Positions 34,468 to 43,834 of a DNA stretch of 64,000 bases are shown here, in pieces. The notes under the pieces were generated by a model. The model had not been told where the DNA came from. It ran no database searches and was given only the letters and a program-made list of their open reading frames with translations. Source of the DNA: Acinetobacter phage vB_AbaM_B9; sequence record MH133207.1; one strand, written 5' to 3'. The number at the start of each line of letters is the position of its first letter. The stretch's first letter is position 1. Made by a program: the position numbers and the translations under genes.

Positions 34468-34727
34468 TGCTTTATTTTGTGGCAACTTACATCTTAATTG
34501 GAATTGTATTAACTACTCTTTTATGTAAATTGGTTGATGATAATATTGATGAGTTTAAAGAATATGTGAATGATGAAGCAAGTTATAATTTTTATGTAAA
34601 TCATAAATGGATTTGCTTCTCAATCTTAGTCTTTGCTTCTCCTTTGTATTATACATATCAATTTACAATTTGGTTTATTAAATATTTATTTGGTTTAACG
34701 TTGAAATTATTTGGTGGTAAGAAGTGA
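34434..34727 (+). CDS. small membrane protein
   Basis: 97 aa, hydrophobic helices. Overlaps both neighbours. Confidence 0.3.
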   Translation: MFSLRLERRGLMLYFVATYILIGIVLTTLLCKLVDDNIDEFKEYVNDEASYNFYVNHKWICFSILVFASPLYYTYQFTIWFIKYLFGLTLKLFGGKK

Positions 34728-36907
34728 AAGTTGTAAAGCGTAGTGGGAAGTCTGAACAATATAACTGCAAGAAAATTAAGAAGGCAATCGCTTTTGCTTG
34801 TGAGGGTCTAAATGTAAACCCATTGAAGTTGGAGGCTAAATTTGATGAGTTCTTGTTTGATGGTGTTACTTCTGAGCAGATTCAACAAAACTTAATTATC
34901 CATGCAAAGAATTTAGCAACACCGACTGACGATGATTGGGTTTTTGTAGCTGGTCGTTTAGCGGTTATGGATTTATGGAACAAGACAAAAGCTTATGAAA
35001 AACCATTTAATCAGTTTATTCATGAGATGGTTGAAAAAGGTGTCTACAAACATCCAGCTTTAGGTGTCTATTCTGATGAAGAAATTATAGAACTTGGAAA
35101 AGAGATTGATAAGTCATATGACTTAAAACACTCAATTTCTTCGTTTAATACTTTTAAAAGCAAATATCTTGTTGAAGGTGAGTGTATTCAATTAGTTCAA
35201 ATGGTTGATGCAATGATCTATGCTTCAGTCGAAAAGACCAAAGAACAACGAATGTATTATGCTAAACGTTGGTATCACATTCTTGCTAACCGTGAACTAT
35301 CAAAGGCAACACCTCATTGGACTGGATTGAGATTTGGTGAAAGTACGGGAAGTTGCTTTGTTTTGGCTGTCGGTGATGATATTGACAGTATTATGGATAA
35401 TGCTAAACGAACTGCAAAGATTTCAAAAGATGGGGGTGGTGTTGGGACATATTGGGGTTATGTTCGAGCTAAAGGTGATATGATTGGTGGAGAATATGGT
35501 TTATCTGGTGGTGTAATTCCGATGATGAAGATATTCAATGAAACTATTGTGGCATTTAATCAGCGTGGTAAACGTAAAGGTGCTATCACATCAGCACTAC
35601 CAATTTGGCATAAGGATGTTGTTGACTTCTTAGATGTTAAAACTGAAGTTGGTGATCTTCGTGGTAAGTTGTTTGACACACAAACACAAATTGTAATTGA
35701 AGATATCTTCATGAATATGAAAGAAAAAGATAATCAACAAATTTGGTACACATTCTCTCCGCATGAAGTTGAGGTTAAGCTTGGATTTAATCTTAATGAT
35801 TATTCTGGAAAAGAATTTGATGAGAAATACCTTGAAGCTGTTAAAGCATATAAGGAAGGTTTAATTAGAGTTGTTGGTGAAATTAAGATTGCTGACTTGT
35901 GGCGTAAGATGATTCAACACATCTTTGAGAAAGGTGTTCCTTATGTAATTTGGGGTACTGAACTTCAGTATCAAAATCCGAACAAACATTGTGGTAAGAT
36001 TCACTCCCTCAATTTATGTGTCGAATCCAGTAGTAACTTTGTAGCAGATCAAGTAGCTCACACCTGTAGCTTGCTATCAATTGTTGTTGGACGTTGTACG
36101 AGTAAAGAAGATGTTATTCAGAAAGCTAGAGATGCAACACGTATTTTAGCTAATAACTTAACATTAACTAAATCTCCTGTAGATATTAGTGGTAAGCATA
36201 TTGATCAATATAGAACCATTGGTGTAGGGATTCAGGGGCTTGTGGATTATCTAGCCAAGAACGACTTGTTATATTCTGACCTTAAAGAGATTCGAGAGTT
36301 GTCGGAATTAATTCAATATGGATGTGTTCTTGAAAGTATGGAACTTGCTAAAGAGCGTGGTGCTTATCCGTTGTTTAAAGGTAGTCGTTGGGATACTGGT
36401 GAACAATTTGAAGCTTATATTGAGAACTCTGTTTCTGATTTAACTGATTGGGTTTGGTTGAGAGATGAAGTTAAGAAGTATGGTGTTTATTGTTCACAGC
36501 ACACATCACCAGCACCTAACACATCCACATCAATCGCTATGGACGCAGCAGCAGGGGTTATGCCTTCATACGCTGAATTCTTCTTTGAAGACAATGTTAT
36601 TGGTAAGTTACCTGTGACATCTATGTATTTAAAAGAAAATCCATTGCTGTATAGTATGACATTTGGTATGTATGATCAGTTAGATTTGGTTGATAGTGTT
36701 TCTGAATTGCAAAAGTATGTTGACACATCAATTAGTGCTGAATATGTTTTAGATCGTAATGTGAGAACAATTACAGCACAAGATATTGCTGACATTTACA
36801 ATAAGGCTTGGAAAAAGAAAACAAAAGCTGTATACTACCTTCGCACTATTAAAGAAGGTGAATCAGTGGTAGATAAATCTTCTGAGTGTAGTGCTTGCGC
36901 TGGTTAA
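34724..36907 (+). CDS. nrdA: ribonucleotide reductase large subunit (class I NrdA-like) with N-terminal ATP-cone
   Basis: ATP-cone VVKRSGKSEQY..KI. Active-site NxCxE (SLNLCVESS). C-terminal Cys pair CSACAG. Confidence 0.85.
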   Translation: MKVVKRSGKSEQYNCKKIKKAIAFACEGLNVNPLKLEAKFDEFLFDGVTSEQIQQNLIIHAKNLATPTDDDWVFVAGRLAVMDLWNKTKAYEKPFNQFIHEMVEKGVYKHPALGVYSDEEIIELGKEIDKSYDLKHSISSFNTFKSKYLVEGECIQLVQMVDAMIYASVEKTKEQRMYYAKRWYHILANRELSKATPHWTGLRFGESTGSCFVLAVGDDIDSIMDNAKRTAKISKDGGGVGTYWGYVRAKGDMIGGEYGLSGGVIPMMKIFNETIVAFNQRGKRKGAITSALPIWHKDVVDFLDVKTEVGDLRGKLFDTQTQIVIEDIFMNMKEKDNQQIWYTFSPHEVEVKLGFNLNDYSGKEFDEKYLEAVKAYKEGLIRVVGEIKIADLWRKMIQHIFEKGVPYVIWGTELQYQNPNKHCGKIHSLNLCVESSSNFVADQVAHTCSLLSIVVGRCTSKEDVIQKARDATRILANNLTLTKSPVDISGKHIDQYRTIGVGIQGLVDYLAKNDLLYSDLKEIRELSELIQYGCVLESMELAKERGAYPLFKGSRWDTGEQFEAYIENSVSDLTDWVWLRDEVKKYGVYCSQHTSPAPNTSTSIAMDAAAGVMPSYAEFFFEDNVIGKLPVTSMYLKENPLLYSMTFGMYDQLDLVDSVSELQKYVDTSISAEYVLDRNVRTITAQDIADIYNKAWKKKTKAVYYLRTIKEGESVVDKSSECSACAG

Positions 36908-36946
36908 TTGTAGAGAGCGAAAGCTCTCTATTTTATTGGAGAGATA

Positions 36947-38005
36947 ATGTTTAGTTTAGATATTAATAGTATTAAGAAAGAATACAGAAATGTGGATTTG
37001 GTTTCTGCACCATTGTTTGATGAAAACGGTAGTGATAGTTTCAAAGACCAAATGATTATTGGAGGTAAACCTTCAGGTATTGTGAATATGAACACAGTTC
37101 GTCATCAATGGGCTGTATCAATTTTCAATAAGATGTGGTCACAATTTTGGCAACCTCAGAATGTAGATATGTCAAAAGATAAAGTTTCAATGGAGCAATT
37201 AACTAAACATGAAGTTAATGCACATTATGATACGATATCATTCTTGGCATTCATGGATAGTTTCCAGATTAACAACCTACCAAACATTTATGAGTATATT
37301 ACATCTCCTATGGTAAAGAGTTGTGGCAGTGTACAAGAAGCATTTGAGACTATGCATACACAAGCATATCAGTACAGTATTGAAGCAACAGTACCAGCAA
37401 ATATGCGTGATGCTATCTATGATCGATGGAAGGAGAATGCACAATTAAAACATCGCATTCAAACTATGACTACGATTGCAGAGAACTTTAAAAATAACCC
37501 AACACTTGAGAATTTCTATATTCTTATTGTTATGAATTATGTTCTTGAGGGTTTTTATTTTTATCAAGGTTTTAATTATTATGATCAATTAGCACATCGT
37601 GGTAAATTAATTGGTACGTCTAAACAGATTGATTACATTAGACGAGATGAACTATCACACATGGGTATTTTTATCAACATGATTAAAGAGATTGGGGTTG
37701 ATCATAAGTTGATTAAGGCGGTGTTTCAGTGGGCATTCAACGAAGAAGTTGCTTGGAATCATAAGACATATGGTGATAATATTTTAGGTATGTCTAAGAA
37801 GTCACAAACACAATATGCTAAATGGTTGGTGAATGAGCGTCTTGGTCGATTAGGTGTTGATCCTTTGTTTGAGAGTGTCGATAATCCGTATTTACATTTA
37901 GAGCAGACCTCAGTTGAAGGTAGTGTTCGTGAGAACTTCTTCGAGACTACTGTTACATCATATGATACTGCGGGTAGTGTTGATGGTTGGGATAATTTAA
38001 AATAA
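36947..38005 (+). CDS. nrdB: ribonucleotide reductase small subunit (NrdB-like)
   Basis: Di-iron/tyrosyl-radical family pattern (EGFYFYQGFNYY, E/H ligand spacing). Adjacent to nrdA. Confidence 0.8.
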   Translation: MFSLDINSIKKEYRNVDLVSAPLFDENGSDSFKDQMIIGGKPSGIVNMNTVRHQWAVSIFNKMWSQFWQPQNVDMSKDKVSMEQLTKHEVNAHYDTISFLAFMDSFQINNLPNIYEYITSPMVKSCGSVQEAFETMHTQAYQYSIEATVPANMRDAIYDRWKENAQLKHRIQTMTTIAENFKNNPTLENFYILIVMNYVLEGFYFYQGFNYYDQLAHRGKLIGTSKQIDYIRRDELSHMGIFINMIKEIGVDHKLIKAVFQWAFNEEVAWNHKTYGDNILGMSKKSQTQYAKWLVNERLGRLGVDPLFESVDNPYLHLEQTSVEGSVRENFFETTVTSYDTAGSVDGWDNLK

Positions 38006-40859: not shown

Positions 40860-41042
40860 ATGAGTTGTAAATATATTGATTTTGATGAATATGAAACGAT
40901 TTATTCGGAAGCACAACAATTATTCTGTGATTACTTAAACGATAAATTAGGTGTTAATGTTAAACCTAGTGATTTTGGTGATCATTGGTATAAAATGGAT
41001 AATGTTATTTCTTATGATTTAACTTTTGAGAAGGAAGAGTAA
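40860..41042 (+). CDS. hypothetical protein
   Basis: 60-aa ORF. Confidence 0.3.
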   Translation: MSCKYIDFDEYETIYSEAQQLFCDYLNDKLGVNVKPSDFGDHWYKMDNVISYDLTFEKEE

Positions 41043-41386
41043 TGTACAAATGTAGATTTGAAGTTCAAGATTATAGTTCGCCTTACTACTCTTGGGATGA
41101 TATTGAAAAAGATTTTGAAACTTTGGAAGAAGCTCGTCAATACTCACTGAATAATTCGTGTAGTCGTGAAGGCTGTAAGTTGGTTAAAGTTTGGATTGAA
41201 GGTAAAGAAATAGATTTTAAGAGATACTTCATGGAGGTTGATTATGGGTTTGAAAGGATTCAAAAGAATTTGATTAATCAATTGGAAAGAGAAATAGCTT
41301 CAATTCAAGACTGTAAATCGATTGAAGAACTAGATGATACATATATTATTTATTTACATGCAACAAAAGGATTGAAGAAAAAGTGA
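41042..41386 (+). CDS. hypothetical protein
   Basis: 114-aa ORF. Confidence 0.4.
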   Translation: MYKCRFEVQDYSSPYYSWDDIEKDFETLEEARQYSLNNSCSREGCKLVKVWIEGKEIDFKRYFMEVDYGFERIQKNLINQLEREIASIQDCKSIEELDDTYIIYLHATKGLKKK

Positions 41387-43347
41387 GTTTACAGAGAGAG
41401 TTTTTTAACAGAGAAACAAATATTACAGCTAAAGTAATCTGTGATAGTATATCAGAAAGTGGTAATAGAATCACAACATTAGAGATTGAGTACCCAAGAT
41501 TTATCCTGTGTTTTGATGAAAAAACTGAGATTTTAGCGAAAATTGGAGACAATTTCCCTGAGTTTATGCACTTTGATAAGGCTAAAACTTTAGGTGCACA
41601 AGTTGCACAATATGATAAAGACACAGGGGAGATCAGTTTCGTAGAACCATTACAATGGGTAAAAAATCAAGGCATTCATAAGATGATCAACTTTGATGAT
41701 TCTGAATCTAAAAAATTCAGCTTATCCGTTACTGATAACCACCGCGTACTTGTCGATAAACGCACCACAGGGAACGAGTTTGTCACAGAAGTTTGGGAAG
41801 CAAAGAGATTACTTGGGGATTACCCTTGTGCAAGGATTCGTCAATCTGGAGAATATAAAGGTAAAACTTTTTATTCCAAAGAAGAAATTGCTTTGATGGT
41901 TTGGTTTGCATCAGATGGATCTTTAAATGGAAATAAAGTCCATTTTAATGTTAAGAAGCAACGTAAGGTCGATTCAATTACTGGTTTATTGAATACTTTA
42001 AACATTGAATATGAGACTTTCTGTTATGATGATTATACACTAATCAAGTGTGACCAATTTGATTGGGTGCATGATTGCTATGATTCAGAAGGATTTAAAA
42101 AGCTTCCTGAAAAAGCTGCATACATGTCAAACGAAGATTATCAATTTGTTAAGATTGCACTTTTAGAATCAGACGGGTCTGTTGTAAATAATGATTTTAA
42201 TTCAACCTCTAAGACGTTTGCGGAACAAGTGCAAGTAATTGCTCACATGCACAATGAAACAATGAATTTGCGATATTATGATACGGAAGGAAGGTCACGT
42301 CTGTATAAATCTAAGTTTAAAGAGCGAAACTCTCATATTCTTCTTCGTAAAGACAATACAAAATTTTACGAAAGTGAATTAAAGGGGTTTGTATATTGTG
42401 TTACAGTTCCATCATCATTTGTTGTTGTGCGGAGAGACGGTATTGTACACATTTCTGGTAATTGTGAATTAAACACTCACAAGATGCTTGAAAAGAATAG
42501 TTCAAGTTCACGTGCTATTCCTATCAAAACTATGATTGAGCAGATTGAGTCTAATACGGCAATGCCTTTATATTGGGGTAAAACTAAATCAGGAATGCAA
42601 GCTGATGGTGAGGTTGAGTTATTTGAACAAACAGTTGCTCATTCACAGTGGACAATGGCTTATTTAGATGCTGTTGATCGTGTAAATGAAATCAGTAATG
42701 TTGGGGTGCATAAACAAACGACTAACCGTTTACTTGAACCTTTCCAGATGATGAAGACTGTAATTACTGGCACTGATTGGGATAATTTCTTTAATTTGCG
42801 TATTCATCCAGATGCACAACCAGAGTTCTGTATGTTAGCTTATAAGATGTATCAAGCTATGCAAGAGAGTACACCTAAGGTTTTACGTGCTGATGAATGG
42901 CATCTTCCTTTTGTAGATTGCACTAGAGATTTTGATGGTAAAATTCAATATGTGACAAAGGTTGAGGATGAGTATATTGAATTGACACTTGAAGAAGCTC
43001 AGCGTATTTCAGCTTCATGTTGCGCTCAAACATCGTATCGTAAGAGTGATGATAGTTTGGAGAAAGCAGATAAAGTTTTTGATATGTTGATTAATGCTGA
43101 AGTTATTCATTCATCACCCTTCGGACATTTAGCAACACCTATTGTTTCTGTAAATGATCATGAGAAAGAAATTTACAAGAACCTCACAGATGATTTTACA
43201 TGGGAGATTGGAATTACTCACATGAAGCGTGGTGGTGTGCTATGTTCGGGTAACTTAACAGGTTGGATTTCATATCGTCATCTAATACCTAATAACACTT
43301 GTTATGACTTTAATTTTGAAGAACGTATGAAATTATTTGACAACTAA
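41383..43347 (+). CDS. thyX: flavin-dependent thymidylate synthase (ThyX)-like protein interrupted by an intein; unusual domain order
   Basis: C-extein motifs align with ThyX: THKx7SxR (RHRx7S position), NRLLEP (ARxVLP), DWDNFFNLRIHPDAQPEF (NFLNLRxxxHAQxEI). The C-terminal extension carries a second copy of the ThyX N-terminal segment (CCAQTSYRK...HSSPFGHL). GTG start. Confidence 0.6.
   Translation: MSLQREFFNRETNITAKVICDSISESGNRITTLEIEYPRFILCFDEKTEILAKIGDNFPEFMHFDKAKTLGAQVAQYDKDTGEISFVEPLQWVKNQGIHKMINFDDSESKKFSLSVTDNHRVLVDKRTTGNEFVTEVWEAKRLLGDYPCARIRQSGEYKGKTFYSKEEIALMVWFASDGSLNGNKVHFNVKKQRKVDSITGLLNTLNIEYETFCYDDYTLIKCDQFDWVHDCYDSEGFKKLPEKAAYMSNEDYQFVKIALLESDGSVVNNDFNSTSKTFAEQVQVIAHMHNETMNLRYYDTEGRSRLYKSKFKERNSHILLRKDNTKFYESELKGFVYCVTVPSSFVVVRRDGIVHISGNCELNTHKMLEKNSSSSRAIPIKTMIEQIESNTAMPLYWGKTKSGMQADGEVELFEQTVAHSQWTMAYLDAVDRVNEISNVGVHKQTTNRLLEPFQMMKTVITGTDWDNFFNLRIHPDAQPEFCMLAYKMYQAMQESTPKVLRADEWHLPFVDCTRDFDGKIQYVTKVEDEYIELTLEEAQRISASCCAQTSYRKSDDSLEKADKVFDMLINAEVIHSSPFGHLATPIVSVNDHEKEIYKNLTDDFTWEIGITHMKRGGVLCSGNLTGWISYRHLIPNNTCYDFNFEERMKLFDN
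41509..42462 (+). mobile_element. intein (318 aa) with embedded double-motif LAGLIDADG homing endonuclease
   Basis: Begins with Cys (CFDEKTEIL), has block B TxxH (SVTDNHRVLV), two LAGLIDADG motifs (LMVWFASDGSL, KIALLESDGSV), and ends ...IVHISGN followed by Cys+1. Confidence 0.55.
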
Positions 43348-43366
43348 ATCTAAATAAACTACTATA

Positions 43367-43398
43367 AAGACATGAGCTAATGCTTGTGTCTTTTTTTA
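43367..43398 (+). terminator. rho-independent terminator
   Basis: 10-bp stem (AGACATGAGC/GCTTGTGTCT, with G-U pairs) followed by TTTTTTT. Confidence 0.7.
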
Positions 43399-43411
43399 TT
43401 GGAGATGTGTT

Positions 43412-43825
43412 TTGATAAACTACGGAAAAGATGTATTTTACAATGAAGTCTATTGCAGACTTCTTGACAACAATCCTGTATTAATTAAAGATTTTGCAAC
43501 AAACAAAGAAGCTATATTGTTTTGTATTAATCAATTAGGAATACCTAACGATTATTTGTATTGGAGTGAAGAAGATAATCATTTTAAACACGATCCAAAA
43601 TTTTTATCTGTTAAAAACATTTTCATGGTTGGTTATAAGATAACTTTGAAAAATGGAAGTGACGGTTTCTGTAGTAATGTAATACAGACAAAACATATGA
43701 TTAATAGTGCTTGGGGGGATGATGTGGAACGTGGAATGGACACAATAAAAGCAATTGATAAACACTCATTTGTGCGATTGAGTTTATTTATCACTTCCGA
43801 ACAATATAAGCGCTTTATGATGTAA
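43412..43825 (+). CDS. hypothetical protein
   Basis: 137-aa ORF, TTG start after GGAG. Confidence 0.35.
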   Translation: MINYGKDVFYNEVYCRLLDNNPVLIKDFATNKEAILFCINQLGIPNDYLYWSEEDNHFKHDPKFLSVKNIFMVGYKITLKNGSDGFCSNVIQTKHMINSAWGDDVERGMDTIKAIDKHSFVRLSLFITSEQYKRFMM

Positions 43826-43834
43826 GGAGATTAT

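Follow-up and report, generated by a model that had tools for sequence, protein, structure and literature searches.

Flavin-dependent thymidylate synthase, ThyX, is an antibacterial drug target whose active site is formed by three subunits of a tetramer; canonical members (Pfam PF02511) include T. maritima TM0449 (PDB 1O26) and PBCV-1 A674R (PDB 4FZB). Inteins in phage ThyX, inteins that end in Gly-Asn and LAGLIDADG inteins in general are already known. In actinobacteriophages, such as the cluster C1 mycobacteriophages, inteins with a homing endonuclease interrupt ThyX near an active-site motif (Kelley et al., 2016, PMC5050341; Gosselin et al., 2025, preprint), and the intein in gp51, the recombination directionality factor (RDF) of mycobacteriophage Bethlehem, is a class 1 intein with Cys1, a LAGLIDADG endonuclease and a Gly-Asn end (PMC5050341). 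Among class 1 inteins of mycobacteriophages, replacement of the penultimate His by Gly, Lys or Ser is frequent; the Bethlehem gp51 intein undergoes efficient splicing, and mutation of its penultimate Gly to His lowers the rate (PMC5050341, by Kelley et al., 2016). Here we analyzed a 64,000-nucleotide stretch (the window) of the 93,641-bp genome of Acinetobacter phage vB_AbaM_B9 (MH133207.1) and, within it, a gene with a GTG start whose 654-aa product is identical to AWD93196.1, 'thymidylate synthase'. Very probably, this gene encodes a ThyX-family enzyme interrupted by a mobile class-1-type intein with a LAGLIDADG endonuclease. The interrupted protein belongs to a very large family of long phage ThyX-like proteins, in which a segment that canonical ThyX carries near its N-terminus instead follows the core.

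The insert in the probable thymidylate synthase gene of B9

The first-pass annotation, made from the sequence alone, had read residues 43-360 of the precursor as an intein. Comparison with P577, an Acinetobacter phage carrying the closest uninterrupted homologue (74% identical), supports this reading. P577 reads ...EYPRFILA-ELNTHKMLEK... (the region around its intein-free site is ...CGTTTTATCCTTGCTGAGTTGAACACTCAT...), whereas the window reads ...EYPRFIL[318 aa]CELNTHKMLEK..., and thus the insertion is exact to the residue and the next residue is Cys instead of Ala. Excision of residues 43-360 leaves an extein of 336 aa. A search for this extein found uninterrupted homologues in 1035 phage records, and in 973 of them one continuous match spans at least 80% of its length; a megablast search with the gene itself against the phage collection, which does not include the source record MH133207, gave no match.

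The insert contains the sequence elements of an intein (Table 1), and all of the strings quoted in the first-pass annotation were recovered from the precursor at the positions checked, including CFDEKTEIL from residue 43, VTDNH at residues 116-120, LMVWFASDGSL at 171-181, KIALLESDGSV at 257-267 and ...IVHISGN, which ends at residue 360 and is followed by Cys361. At the same position, homologous inserts with 34-58% identity are found in other, diverged versions of this host protein. They were carried by metagenomic proteins (P0001, P0002, P0123, P0124, P0130, P0182, P0186 and P0250) and by the E. coli phages TH18, 19-1-2, 24-2-1 and 18-1-2, in which the 629-aa gene products are annotated only as 'putative thymidylate synthase'. 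Block A was conserved as CFD[ED]xTE in all complete homologues at the site, block B as VT[DE]xH and block F as VYCV[TS]VPSSF...VRRxG, and both LAGLIDADG motifs with their Asp residues were conserved as well, as was the C-terminal SGN followed by Cys. Gly-Asn at the end of the intein and Cys-Glu at the start of the C-extein were found in 8/8 alleles (window, P0001, P0002, P0123, P0124, P0130, P0182 and TH18). The Gly-Asn end and the +1 Cys singled out in the first-pass annotation are real, and such ends are already documented in phage inteins. In most intein-free alleles the +1 position is Ala, Ser or Gly, and in a minority it is Cys. Four intein-free relatives (P0057, P0062, P0090 and P0118) carry Cys at the +1 position of this site, extein position 43, perhaps as the trace of a lost intein or as a site suited to one in advance.

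We next modeled the intein with AlphaFold from a seven-sequence alignment. The endonuclease core, residues 120-270, was predicted with a local distance difference score (pLDDT) above 90. When the model was searched against the PDB with Foldseek, the top matches were the whole homing-endonuclease inteins TliVMA (E 8e-8), PhoVMA, PI-SceI and PI-PfuI, followed by free-standing LAGLIDADG enzymes such as I-DmoI; the intein matches had E values of 8e-8 to 1e-5 over 230-399 aligned columns at 10-13% sequence identity. Extein, intein and an intein profile, used as queries against PDB sequences, returned only a weak match to the LAGLIDADG motif of I-Tsp061I (E 0.44). Relatives that match the intein over its full length (28% identity) lie within ribonucleotide reductase genes of Staphylococcus phages, and a hidden Markov model built from the intein alignment detected no other intein of this type in the window. 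The intein lineage is divergent. The insert is predicted to be a class-1-type intein with a LAGLIDADG homing endonuclease, and would be capable of both splicing and DNA cleavage. A recent foreign origin was also considered from base composition and gave no signal (GC content of 34.6% for the intein, 35.8% for the C-extein and 32.1% for the window).

In the clade to which the intein belongs, Cys1 occurs together with Cys at block F position 4, also conserved, and with the ending Ser-Gly-Asn; the Trp-Cys-Thr triplet is absent. The same Cys1, block F Cys and Ser-Gly-Asn features were seen in a 150-aa mini-intein in a phage primase (P0126).

Architecture of the ThyX-like extein and its family

The first-pass annotation had assigned the extein to the ThyX family, and this assignment passed a search with the Pfam Thy1 model, which scored 33.8 bits on the spliced extein (gathering cutoff 24.8), only over residues 32-180; on the unspliced precursor the score was 23.7 bits, just below the cutoff. 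The PHROG family phrog_85, 'thymidylate synthase', matched extein residues 2-330 (E 5.9e-96), and an AlphaFold model of the extein based on 121 homologues reached a pLDDT of 79.9 and a predicted template modeling score (pTM) of 0.82. The spliced 336-aa product has the ThyX fold. We discounted as spurious a weak match, under the cutoff, of the Pfam model Ribonuc_red_lgN to extein residues 204-261 (E 0.001).

To locate the parts of ThyX within the extein, we aligned a profile of the long family, made from 132 diverse representatives, with a canonical ThyX profile made from the T. maritima sequence (checked to be the same as that of PDB 1KQ4) and seven phage ThyX sequences. HHalign matched extein residues 15-184 to canonical residues 41-203 (probability 97%, E 1e-11) and, separately, extein residues 211-273 to canonical residues 16-68, the alpha1-alpha2-HxSPFEH segment (probability 92%, E 6e-7). 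The score of this second match was 42.1, compared to 10.4±2.0 and a maximum of 16.0 in 60 column-shuffled controls. Canonical ThyX has the order beta1, alpha1-alpha2-HxSPFEH, beta2 and core; in the extein the alpha1-alpha2-HxSPFEH segment follows the core, and at the N-terminus two strands joined by a four-residue hairpin are found where canonical ThyX has alpha1-alpha2. Extein residue 42, the last of the N-extein, aligns to T. maritima Ala73. The family consensus of the relocated segment, CAQVSYR...HASPFEH, is nearly the same as the canonical AARVSY...HxSPFEH, the modeled order of helix, helix, short helix and strand is the canonical one, and the counterparts of T. maritima His53 and His59, extein His258 and His264, show complete or almost complete conservation. 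Thus, the placement of an HxxPFEH-containing segment behind the core, proposed in the first-pass annotation from ISASCCAQTSYRK...HSSPFGH, was borne out by a profile score far above the shuffled null.

The same annotation had described the protein as circularly permuted or partially duplicated. Relocation of the segment is upheld and a clean circular permutation is not demonstrated; since an N-terminal strand precedes the core, relocation, or duplication followed by deletion, accounts better for the architecture than a clean permutation. Permuted proteins usually arise by duplication and subsequent deletion, and on this ground the C-terminal half might be the remnant of a tandem second ThyX copy, such that the protein is a degenerate pseudo-dimer in which copy 1 lacks alpha1-alpha2 and copy 2 lacks most of the core. 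The strand at residues 15-24 before the core, the extra strands at residues 194-216 that precede the relocated helices and a weak resemblance of the tail (residues 276-336) to canonical residues 154-183 (P 7e-4, probability 26%) all speak for such an origin. However, the N and C halves of the extein showed no detectable similarity to each other (P 0.21), and the tail, modeled at low confidence, resembled neither the canonical RHR region (P 0.47) nor the family's own first motif (P 0.21), so that the further partial repeat which the first-pass annotation saw in ...GITHMKRGG...SYRHL, a string that is present, gained no support. We consider a tandem copy doubtful.

Conservation of individual motifs was measured over the same 132 representatives and is given in extein numbering. 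In the HHalign register, T. maritima Asn85, Ser88, Arg90, Arg147, Arg174, His53 and His59 all have conserved counterparts. The family-wide elements are ExxTHRxxSxNxxSSRA, HKQxxNRxxEP (Arg131, 100%), NFFxLRxHxDAQPE (Arg155, 100%), WHxPY (His189 and Pro191, 100%), CAQVSYR...HASPFEH and a tail with SGN...R314. In the equivalent of the ThyX motif, the Thr, His, Asn, Ser-Ser and Arg residues are conserved throughout the family; the His, distal Ser and Arg of the canonical motif are kept, and canonical Arg78 is Thr in 93% of the representatives. The replacement of both Arg residues flanking the motif His by Thr and Lys, noted at first from THKMLEKNSSSSR (present at precursor residues 365-377), is correct, the first replacement being family-wide and the second confined to a subclade. 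The ThyX motifs proposed for the C-extein held as regions but not in their wording: the supposed ARxVLP is TNRLLEP, and in NFFNLRIHPDAQPE, itself present, the His of 'HAQ' is Asp (RIHPDAQPE), with a His two residues before it.

These features are not peculiar to the B9 gene. When 1.84 billion representatives were scanned in full with HMMER, the family comprised 5,525 clusters (at 50% identity) with E<=1e-3 and 4,874 with E<=1e-10. The family occurs in phages of Gram-negative hosts, among them Pseudomonas phages, Vibrio phage ICP1, Klebsiella phages, rV5-like and N4-like coliphages, and Campylobacter, Caulobacter and Flavobacterium phages, and also in PAK_P1-like phages. Both the rearrangement and the Thr-His with which the motif starts characterize this whole, very large phage family. 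The window's THK...E and SSPFGH are instead traits of a subclade: Arg49, Ser52 and Glu263, found in most of the family, are jointly Lys49, Glu52 and Gly263 in the subclade from Acinetobacter phages. This joint change may amount to a relocation of charge between the first and the relocated motif; it is no proof of contact between the residues, since it looks like a single event that is confined to one clade and may reflect shared ancestry. The long phage 'ThyX' proteins may constitute a distinct, uncharacterized, rearranged subclass of ThyX with an altered flavin/phosphate motif (THR), extra invariant elements and possibly a different subunit arrangement, a proposal that we advance tentatively.

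We also surveyed intein sites in the best 150 representatives of the family and found inserts in 18, whose lengths are 549-683 aa. The inserts define at least five sites (extein numbering), each beside invariant residues, and these sites are occupied by two unrelated types of intein, a LAGLIDADG type with a Gly-Asn end and an HNH type with a His-Asn end. Site a1, that of the window, lies before Glu44 (4 representatives), site b after LRxH157 (3 representatives) and site c after His258 of the relocated motif (7 representatives); inteins at these three sites end in Gly-Asn and have Cys at block F position 4. Sites a2, after THR, and a3, after THRM[LF], hold HNH-type inteins ending in His-Asn (2 representatives each). 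Of these, the site-c inteins are related to the window's intein over its whole length (24-27% identity, E 1e-11 to 1e-18), the site-b inteins less closely. Inteins usually insert beside invariant residues, as is typical of active-site targeting. Because the site-c inteins adjoin His258, they mark the relocated HxSPFEH motif independently as functionally important. If the long proteins do form a subclass of their own, the five intein sites would be a natural map of its active site. The insert-bearing proteins include P0127, P0146, P0161, P0169, P0197, P0213, P0222, P0236 and others.

Table 1. Features of the B9 gene and adjacent open reading frames (ORFs), in window positions; aa numbers refer to the precursor unless given as extein
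Feature	Position	Strand	Description
Upstream ORF	41042..41386	+	114 aa; inside variable slot; no homologue in compared relatives
Whole precursor gene	41383..43347	+	654 aa plus stop; AWD93196.1
N-extein	41383..41508	+	aa 1-42; beta-hairpin (model strands 15-24, 29-38); end ...EYPRFIL; from sequence and AlphaFold model
Intein	41509..42462	+	aa 43-360, 318 aa; class-1-like, predicted LAGLIDADG homing endonuclease domain
Block A	41509..41547	+	CFDEKTEILAKIG; Cys43, predicted N-terminal nucleophile
Block B	41716..41754	+	FSLSVTDNHRVLV; TxxH, Thr117 and His120
LAGLIDADG motif 1	41893..41925	+	Asp178
LAGLIDADG motif 2	42151..42183	+	Asp264
Blocks F and G	42388..42462	+	FVYCVTVPSSFVVVRRDGIVHISGN; Cys339 (block F position 4), penultimate Gly359, terminal Asn360
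C-extein	42463..43344	+	aa 361-654; first residue Cys361 (+1)
ThyX-motif equivalent	42463..42522	+	CELNTHKMLEKNSSSSRAIP; aligns with T. maritima ThyX 74-93, RHRxxSxNExSxRY region
Extein residue 49	42481-42483	+	Lys49
Extein residue 52	42490-42492	+	Glu52
HKQxxNRLLEP motif	42706..42744	+	extein Arg131, invariant; aligns with T. maritima Arg147
NFFNLRIHPDAQPE motif	42775..42828	+	extein Arg155, invariant; aligns with T. maritima Arg174; intein site b in other members
WHxP[YF] motif	42895..42915	+	family-specific; extein His189 and Pro191; no canonical ThyX counterpart
Relocated ThyX N-terminal segment	42979..43152	+	about extein 215-272; helix CAQTSYR (like AARVSY), second helix, HSSPFGH (canonical HxSPFEH), beta strand; aligns with T. 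maritima 16-68
Extein residue 263	43123-43125	+	Gly263
C-terminal tail	43198..43299	+	conserved Thr-His, Ser-Gly-Asn and Arg314; pLDDT <50
Downstream ORF	43412..43825	+	137 aa; inside variable slot; no homologue in compared relatives

Locus, function and alternative readings

The window has about 88% DNA identity to parts of Acinetobacter phages TaPaz, Ab3-TPeters, MD-2021a and others. The neighbors of the gene encode a tape measure protein, a Toprim primase/helicase, a DNA polymerase and the alpha and beta subunits of ribonucleotide reductase, and on account of these neighbors the gene is placed in the replication and nucleotide-metabolism module. It lies in a variable slot (about 41040-43830 of the window) whose contents differ among related Acinetobacter phages and whose flanks are both conserved. 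In the window the slot holds the long ThyX with its intein; its counterpart in Ab3-TPeters contains genes for a ThyA of 275 aa and, after it, dihydrofolate reductase (DHFR) (L002 11457-12805), and that in MD-2021a a gene for canonical ThyX (232 aa, 37% identity to the T. maritima enzyme; L014 11759-12457). A comparable exchange was found in Rheinheimera Barbavirus phages, where the locus between glutaredoxin/MazG and ribonucleotide reductase carries two alternative forms of ThyX, the long form of 303 aa in Barba5S (L003 2185-3096) and canonical ThyX of 222 aa in Barba3S (L013 2495-3163).

Since the slot holds ThyA with DHFR or canonical ThyX in related phages, a thymidylate synthase function is likely for the extein, and comparative genomics points to the flavin-dependent type. 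Organisms with ThyX dispense with DHFR (PMC9931769), and the lack of both ThyA and DHFR within the 64-kb window fits this rule.

Several observations weigh against reading the gene as an intein-bearing ThyX. On the extein side, the TIGR02170 thyX equivalog model scored 38.9 bits, well under its cutoff of 87.9; the canonical signature RHRxxSxxxxSxR reads THRxxSxNxxSSR in the family and THKxxExNxxSSR in the window, where Lys49 and Glu52 depart even from the family; the PDB holds no solved structure of any long-family member, and no biochemical study of the family turned up in our literature search. The window leaves about 30 kb of the phage genome uncovered, which may encode a second thymidylate synthase. 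On the intein side, the penultimate residue is Gly359, conserved as Gly in the intein clade, instead of His; Pfam gave no match to a Hint or intein-splicing model on the insert and only a match below cutoff to LAGLIDADG_3 (E 0.002), and the splicing-domain parts of the AlphaFold model had pLDDT values below 50.

One alternative concerns the chemistry: the long ThyX-like family might be a flavoenzyme with another substrate or another C5 modification of pyrimidines, and not a thymidylate synthase. Phage homologues of ThyA have proved to be dCMP (deoxycytidine monophosphate) hydroxylases, in a study of 5-hydroxycytosine that deals with ThyA and not ThyX homologues (PMC13326640). Furthermore, PolB, a ThyX homologue that methylates uridine monophosphate, was among the top structural matches, and the family-wide loss of the first Arg of RHR, the family-specific WHxPY and Ser-Gly-Asn...Arg tail and the low equivalog score would all suit a changed reaction. 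Against it, the long form replaces canonical ThyX or ThyA with DHFR at the same locus in two unrelated phage groups, and the counterparts of the residues at the deoxyuridine monophosphate (dUMP) site, T. maritima Ser88, Arg90, Arg147 and Arg174, are invariant. In addition, the family is found in the well-known ICP1, PAK_P1-like and rV5-like phages, which have ordinary thymine DNA. We therefore judge a different chemistry to be unlikely.

The reading of the insert as a fixed, non-splicing domain, or of the gene as a disrupted pseudogene, draws on the missing splicing-domain match, the low model confidence in the splicing parts and the lack of a penultimate His, but is highly improbable given that Cys1, TxxH, the terminal Asn and the +1 Cys are kept among alleles as distant as 34-58% identity, that the +1 Cys accompanies every intein allele compared and only a minority of intein-free ones, that the frame is intact over 654 codons with the family-invariant residues retained in the extein, and that a retained domain of 318 aa at the junction of beta2 and the ThyX motif would disrupt the active site.

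For an intein-bearing ThyX that acts as a thymidylate synthase, we propose the following course of events. After translation the intein would excise itself, with a thioester at Cys43 that is attacked by Cys361, and Asn360 would cyclize without the help of a penultimate His, like other phage inteins that end in Gly-Asn. Ligation of Leu42 to Cys361, four residues before the Thr-His-Lys motif, would complete the active site. The ligated enzyme would convert dUMP to deoxythymidine monophosphate (dTMP) with methylene-tetrahydrofolate and reduced flavin and would not need DHFR, and the dTMP would feed phage DNA replication alongside the neighboring ribonucleotide reductase. In co-infections, the endonuclease may cut intein-free alleles at the conserved coding sequence for ...FIL-A/S/G-ELNTH..., so that the intein is copied in.

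Other features of the region were also recorded. The small ORFs that flank the gene were considered as co-travelers and rejected, as no homologues lie beside the gene in P577, TH18, Barba5S or Ab3. The GTG start of the precursor overlaps the stop codon of the upstream ORF. A 92-aa ORF on the minus strand (41346-41624) overlaps the start of the gene, is without support and is probably spurious. The ribonucleotide reductase genes of the window (34724-38005) encode first the alpha subunit (727 aa, with an ATP-cone) and then the beta subunit (352 aa), whereas in the relatives (L002 6135-8902 and L014 4638-7405) the beta subunit (342 aa) comes first and the alpha subunit (581 aa, annotated as nrdE) second; the region seems to have undergone a second exchange of modules here. 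Elsewhere, Escherichia phage vB_EcoM-ECP26 carries the long ThyX as two ORFs of 245 and 97 aa (BFVD A0A4Y5TVX3 and A0A4Y5TVY4), and in Vibrio phage 1.097.O the canonical ThyX match is in two pieces with an annotated HNH endonuclease between them. These splits may represent further mobile elements in thymidylate synthase genes.

Relation to known systems

The rearranged architecture seems to be undescribed: we found no description of it in the literature searched, the coverage of which was incomplete, and others may have noticed it, because the family is large and commonly annotated. Its several thousand clusters are routinely annotated as ordinary thymidylate synthases. The paper on TaPaz, which discusses B9, mentions only a terminase intein (TaPaz large terminase gp49, residues 35-388; PMC8228797). 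As the intein goes unmentioned in AWD93196.1 and in its relatives from E. coli phages (e.g. TH18, 629 aa), the lengths and domain content of these proteins are misread. For enzymology, a family that keeps its catalytic residues with one segment at the other end of the chain, and with the first Arg of the signature replaced, offers a test of which architecture is essential. For intein biology, the presence of at least five sites, three of them with related Gly-Asn-ended inteins, provides a compact system to study how inteins switch sites.

The long family shares with canonical ThyX an alignment of catalytic residues, a place in nucleotide-metabolism modules and interchange at the same locus. 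It differs in that alpha1-alpha2-HxSPFEH comes after the core, in the change of RHR to THR in the family and THK in the window, and in about 110 extra residues, which include the invariant WHxPY and the conserved tail. As in the actinobacteriophages, a homing-endonuclease intein lies in a phage ThyX near an active-site motif; however, their host protein is canonical ThyX, and that of the window's intein is a member of the long rearranged family found in phages of Gram-negative hosts. The Bethlehem gp51 intein is likewise of class 1, with Cys1, a LAGLIDADG endonuclease and a Gly-Asn end, but it resides in a different host protein, and the window's clade additionally has Cys at block F position 4. 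With PI-SceI, TliVMA and PI-PfuI the window's intein has in common a two-motif LAGLIDADG domain embedded in a splicing domain, which in the window's intein is putative, and it is smaller than these (318 compared to about 360-450 aa) and ends in Gly-Asn. Finally, the Cys at block F position 4 and a phage origin are shared with class 3 inteins, which are defined by the lack of an N-terminal nucleophile and by Trp-Cys-Thr and include that in DnaB of mycobacteriophage Bethlehem, but the window's intein falls outside this class: it retains Cys1 and has Val or Ile, not Trp, at block B position 12 and Ser, not Thr, at block G position 5.

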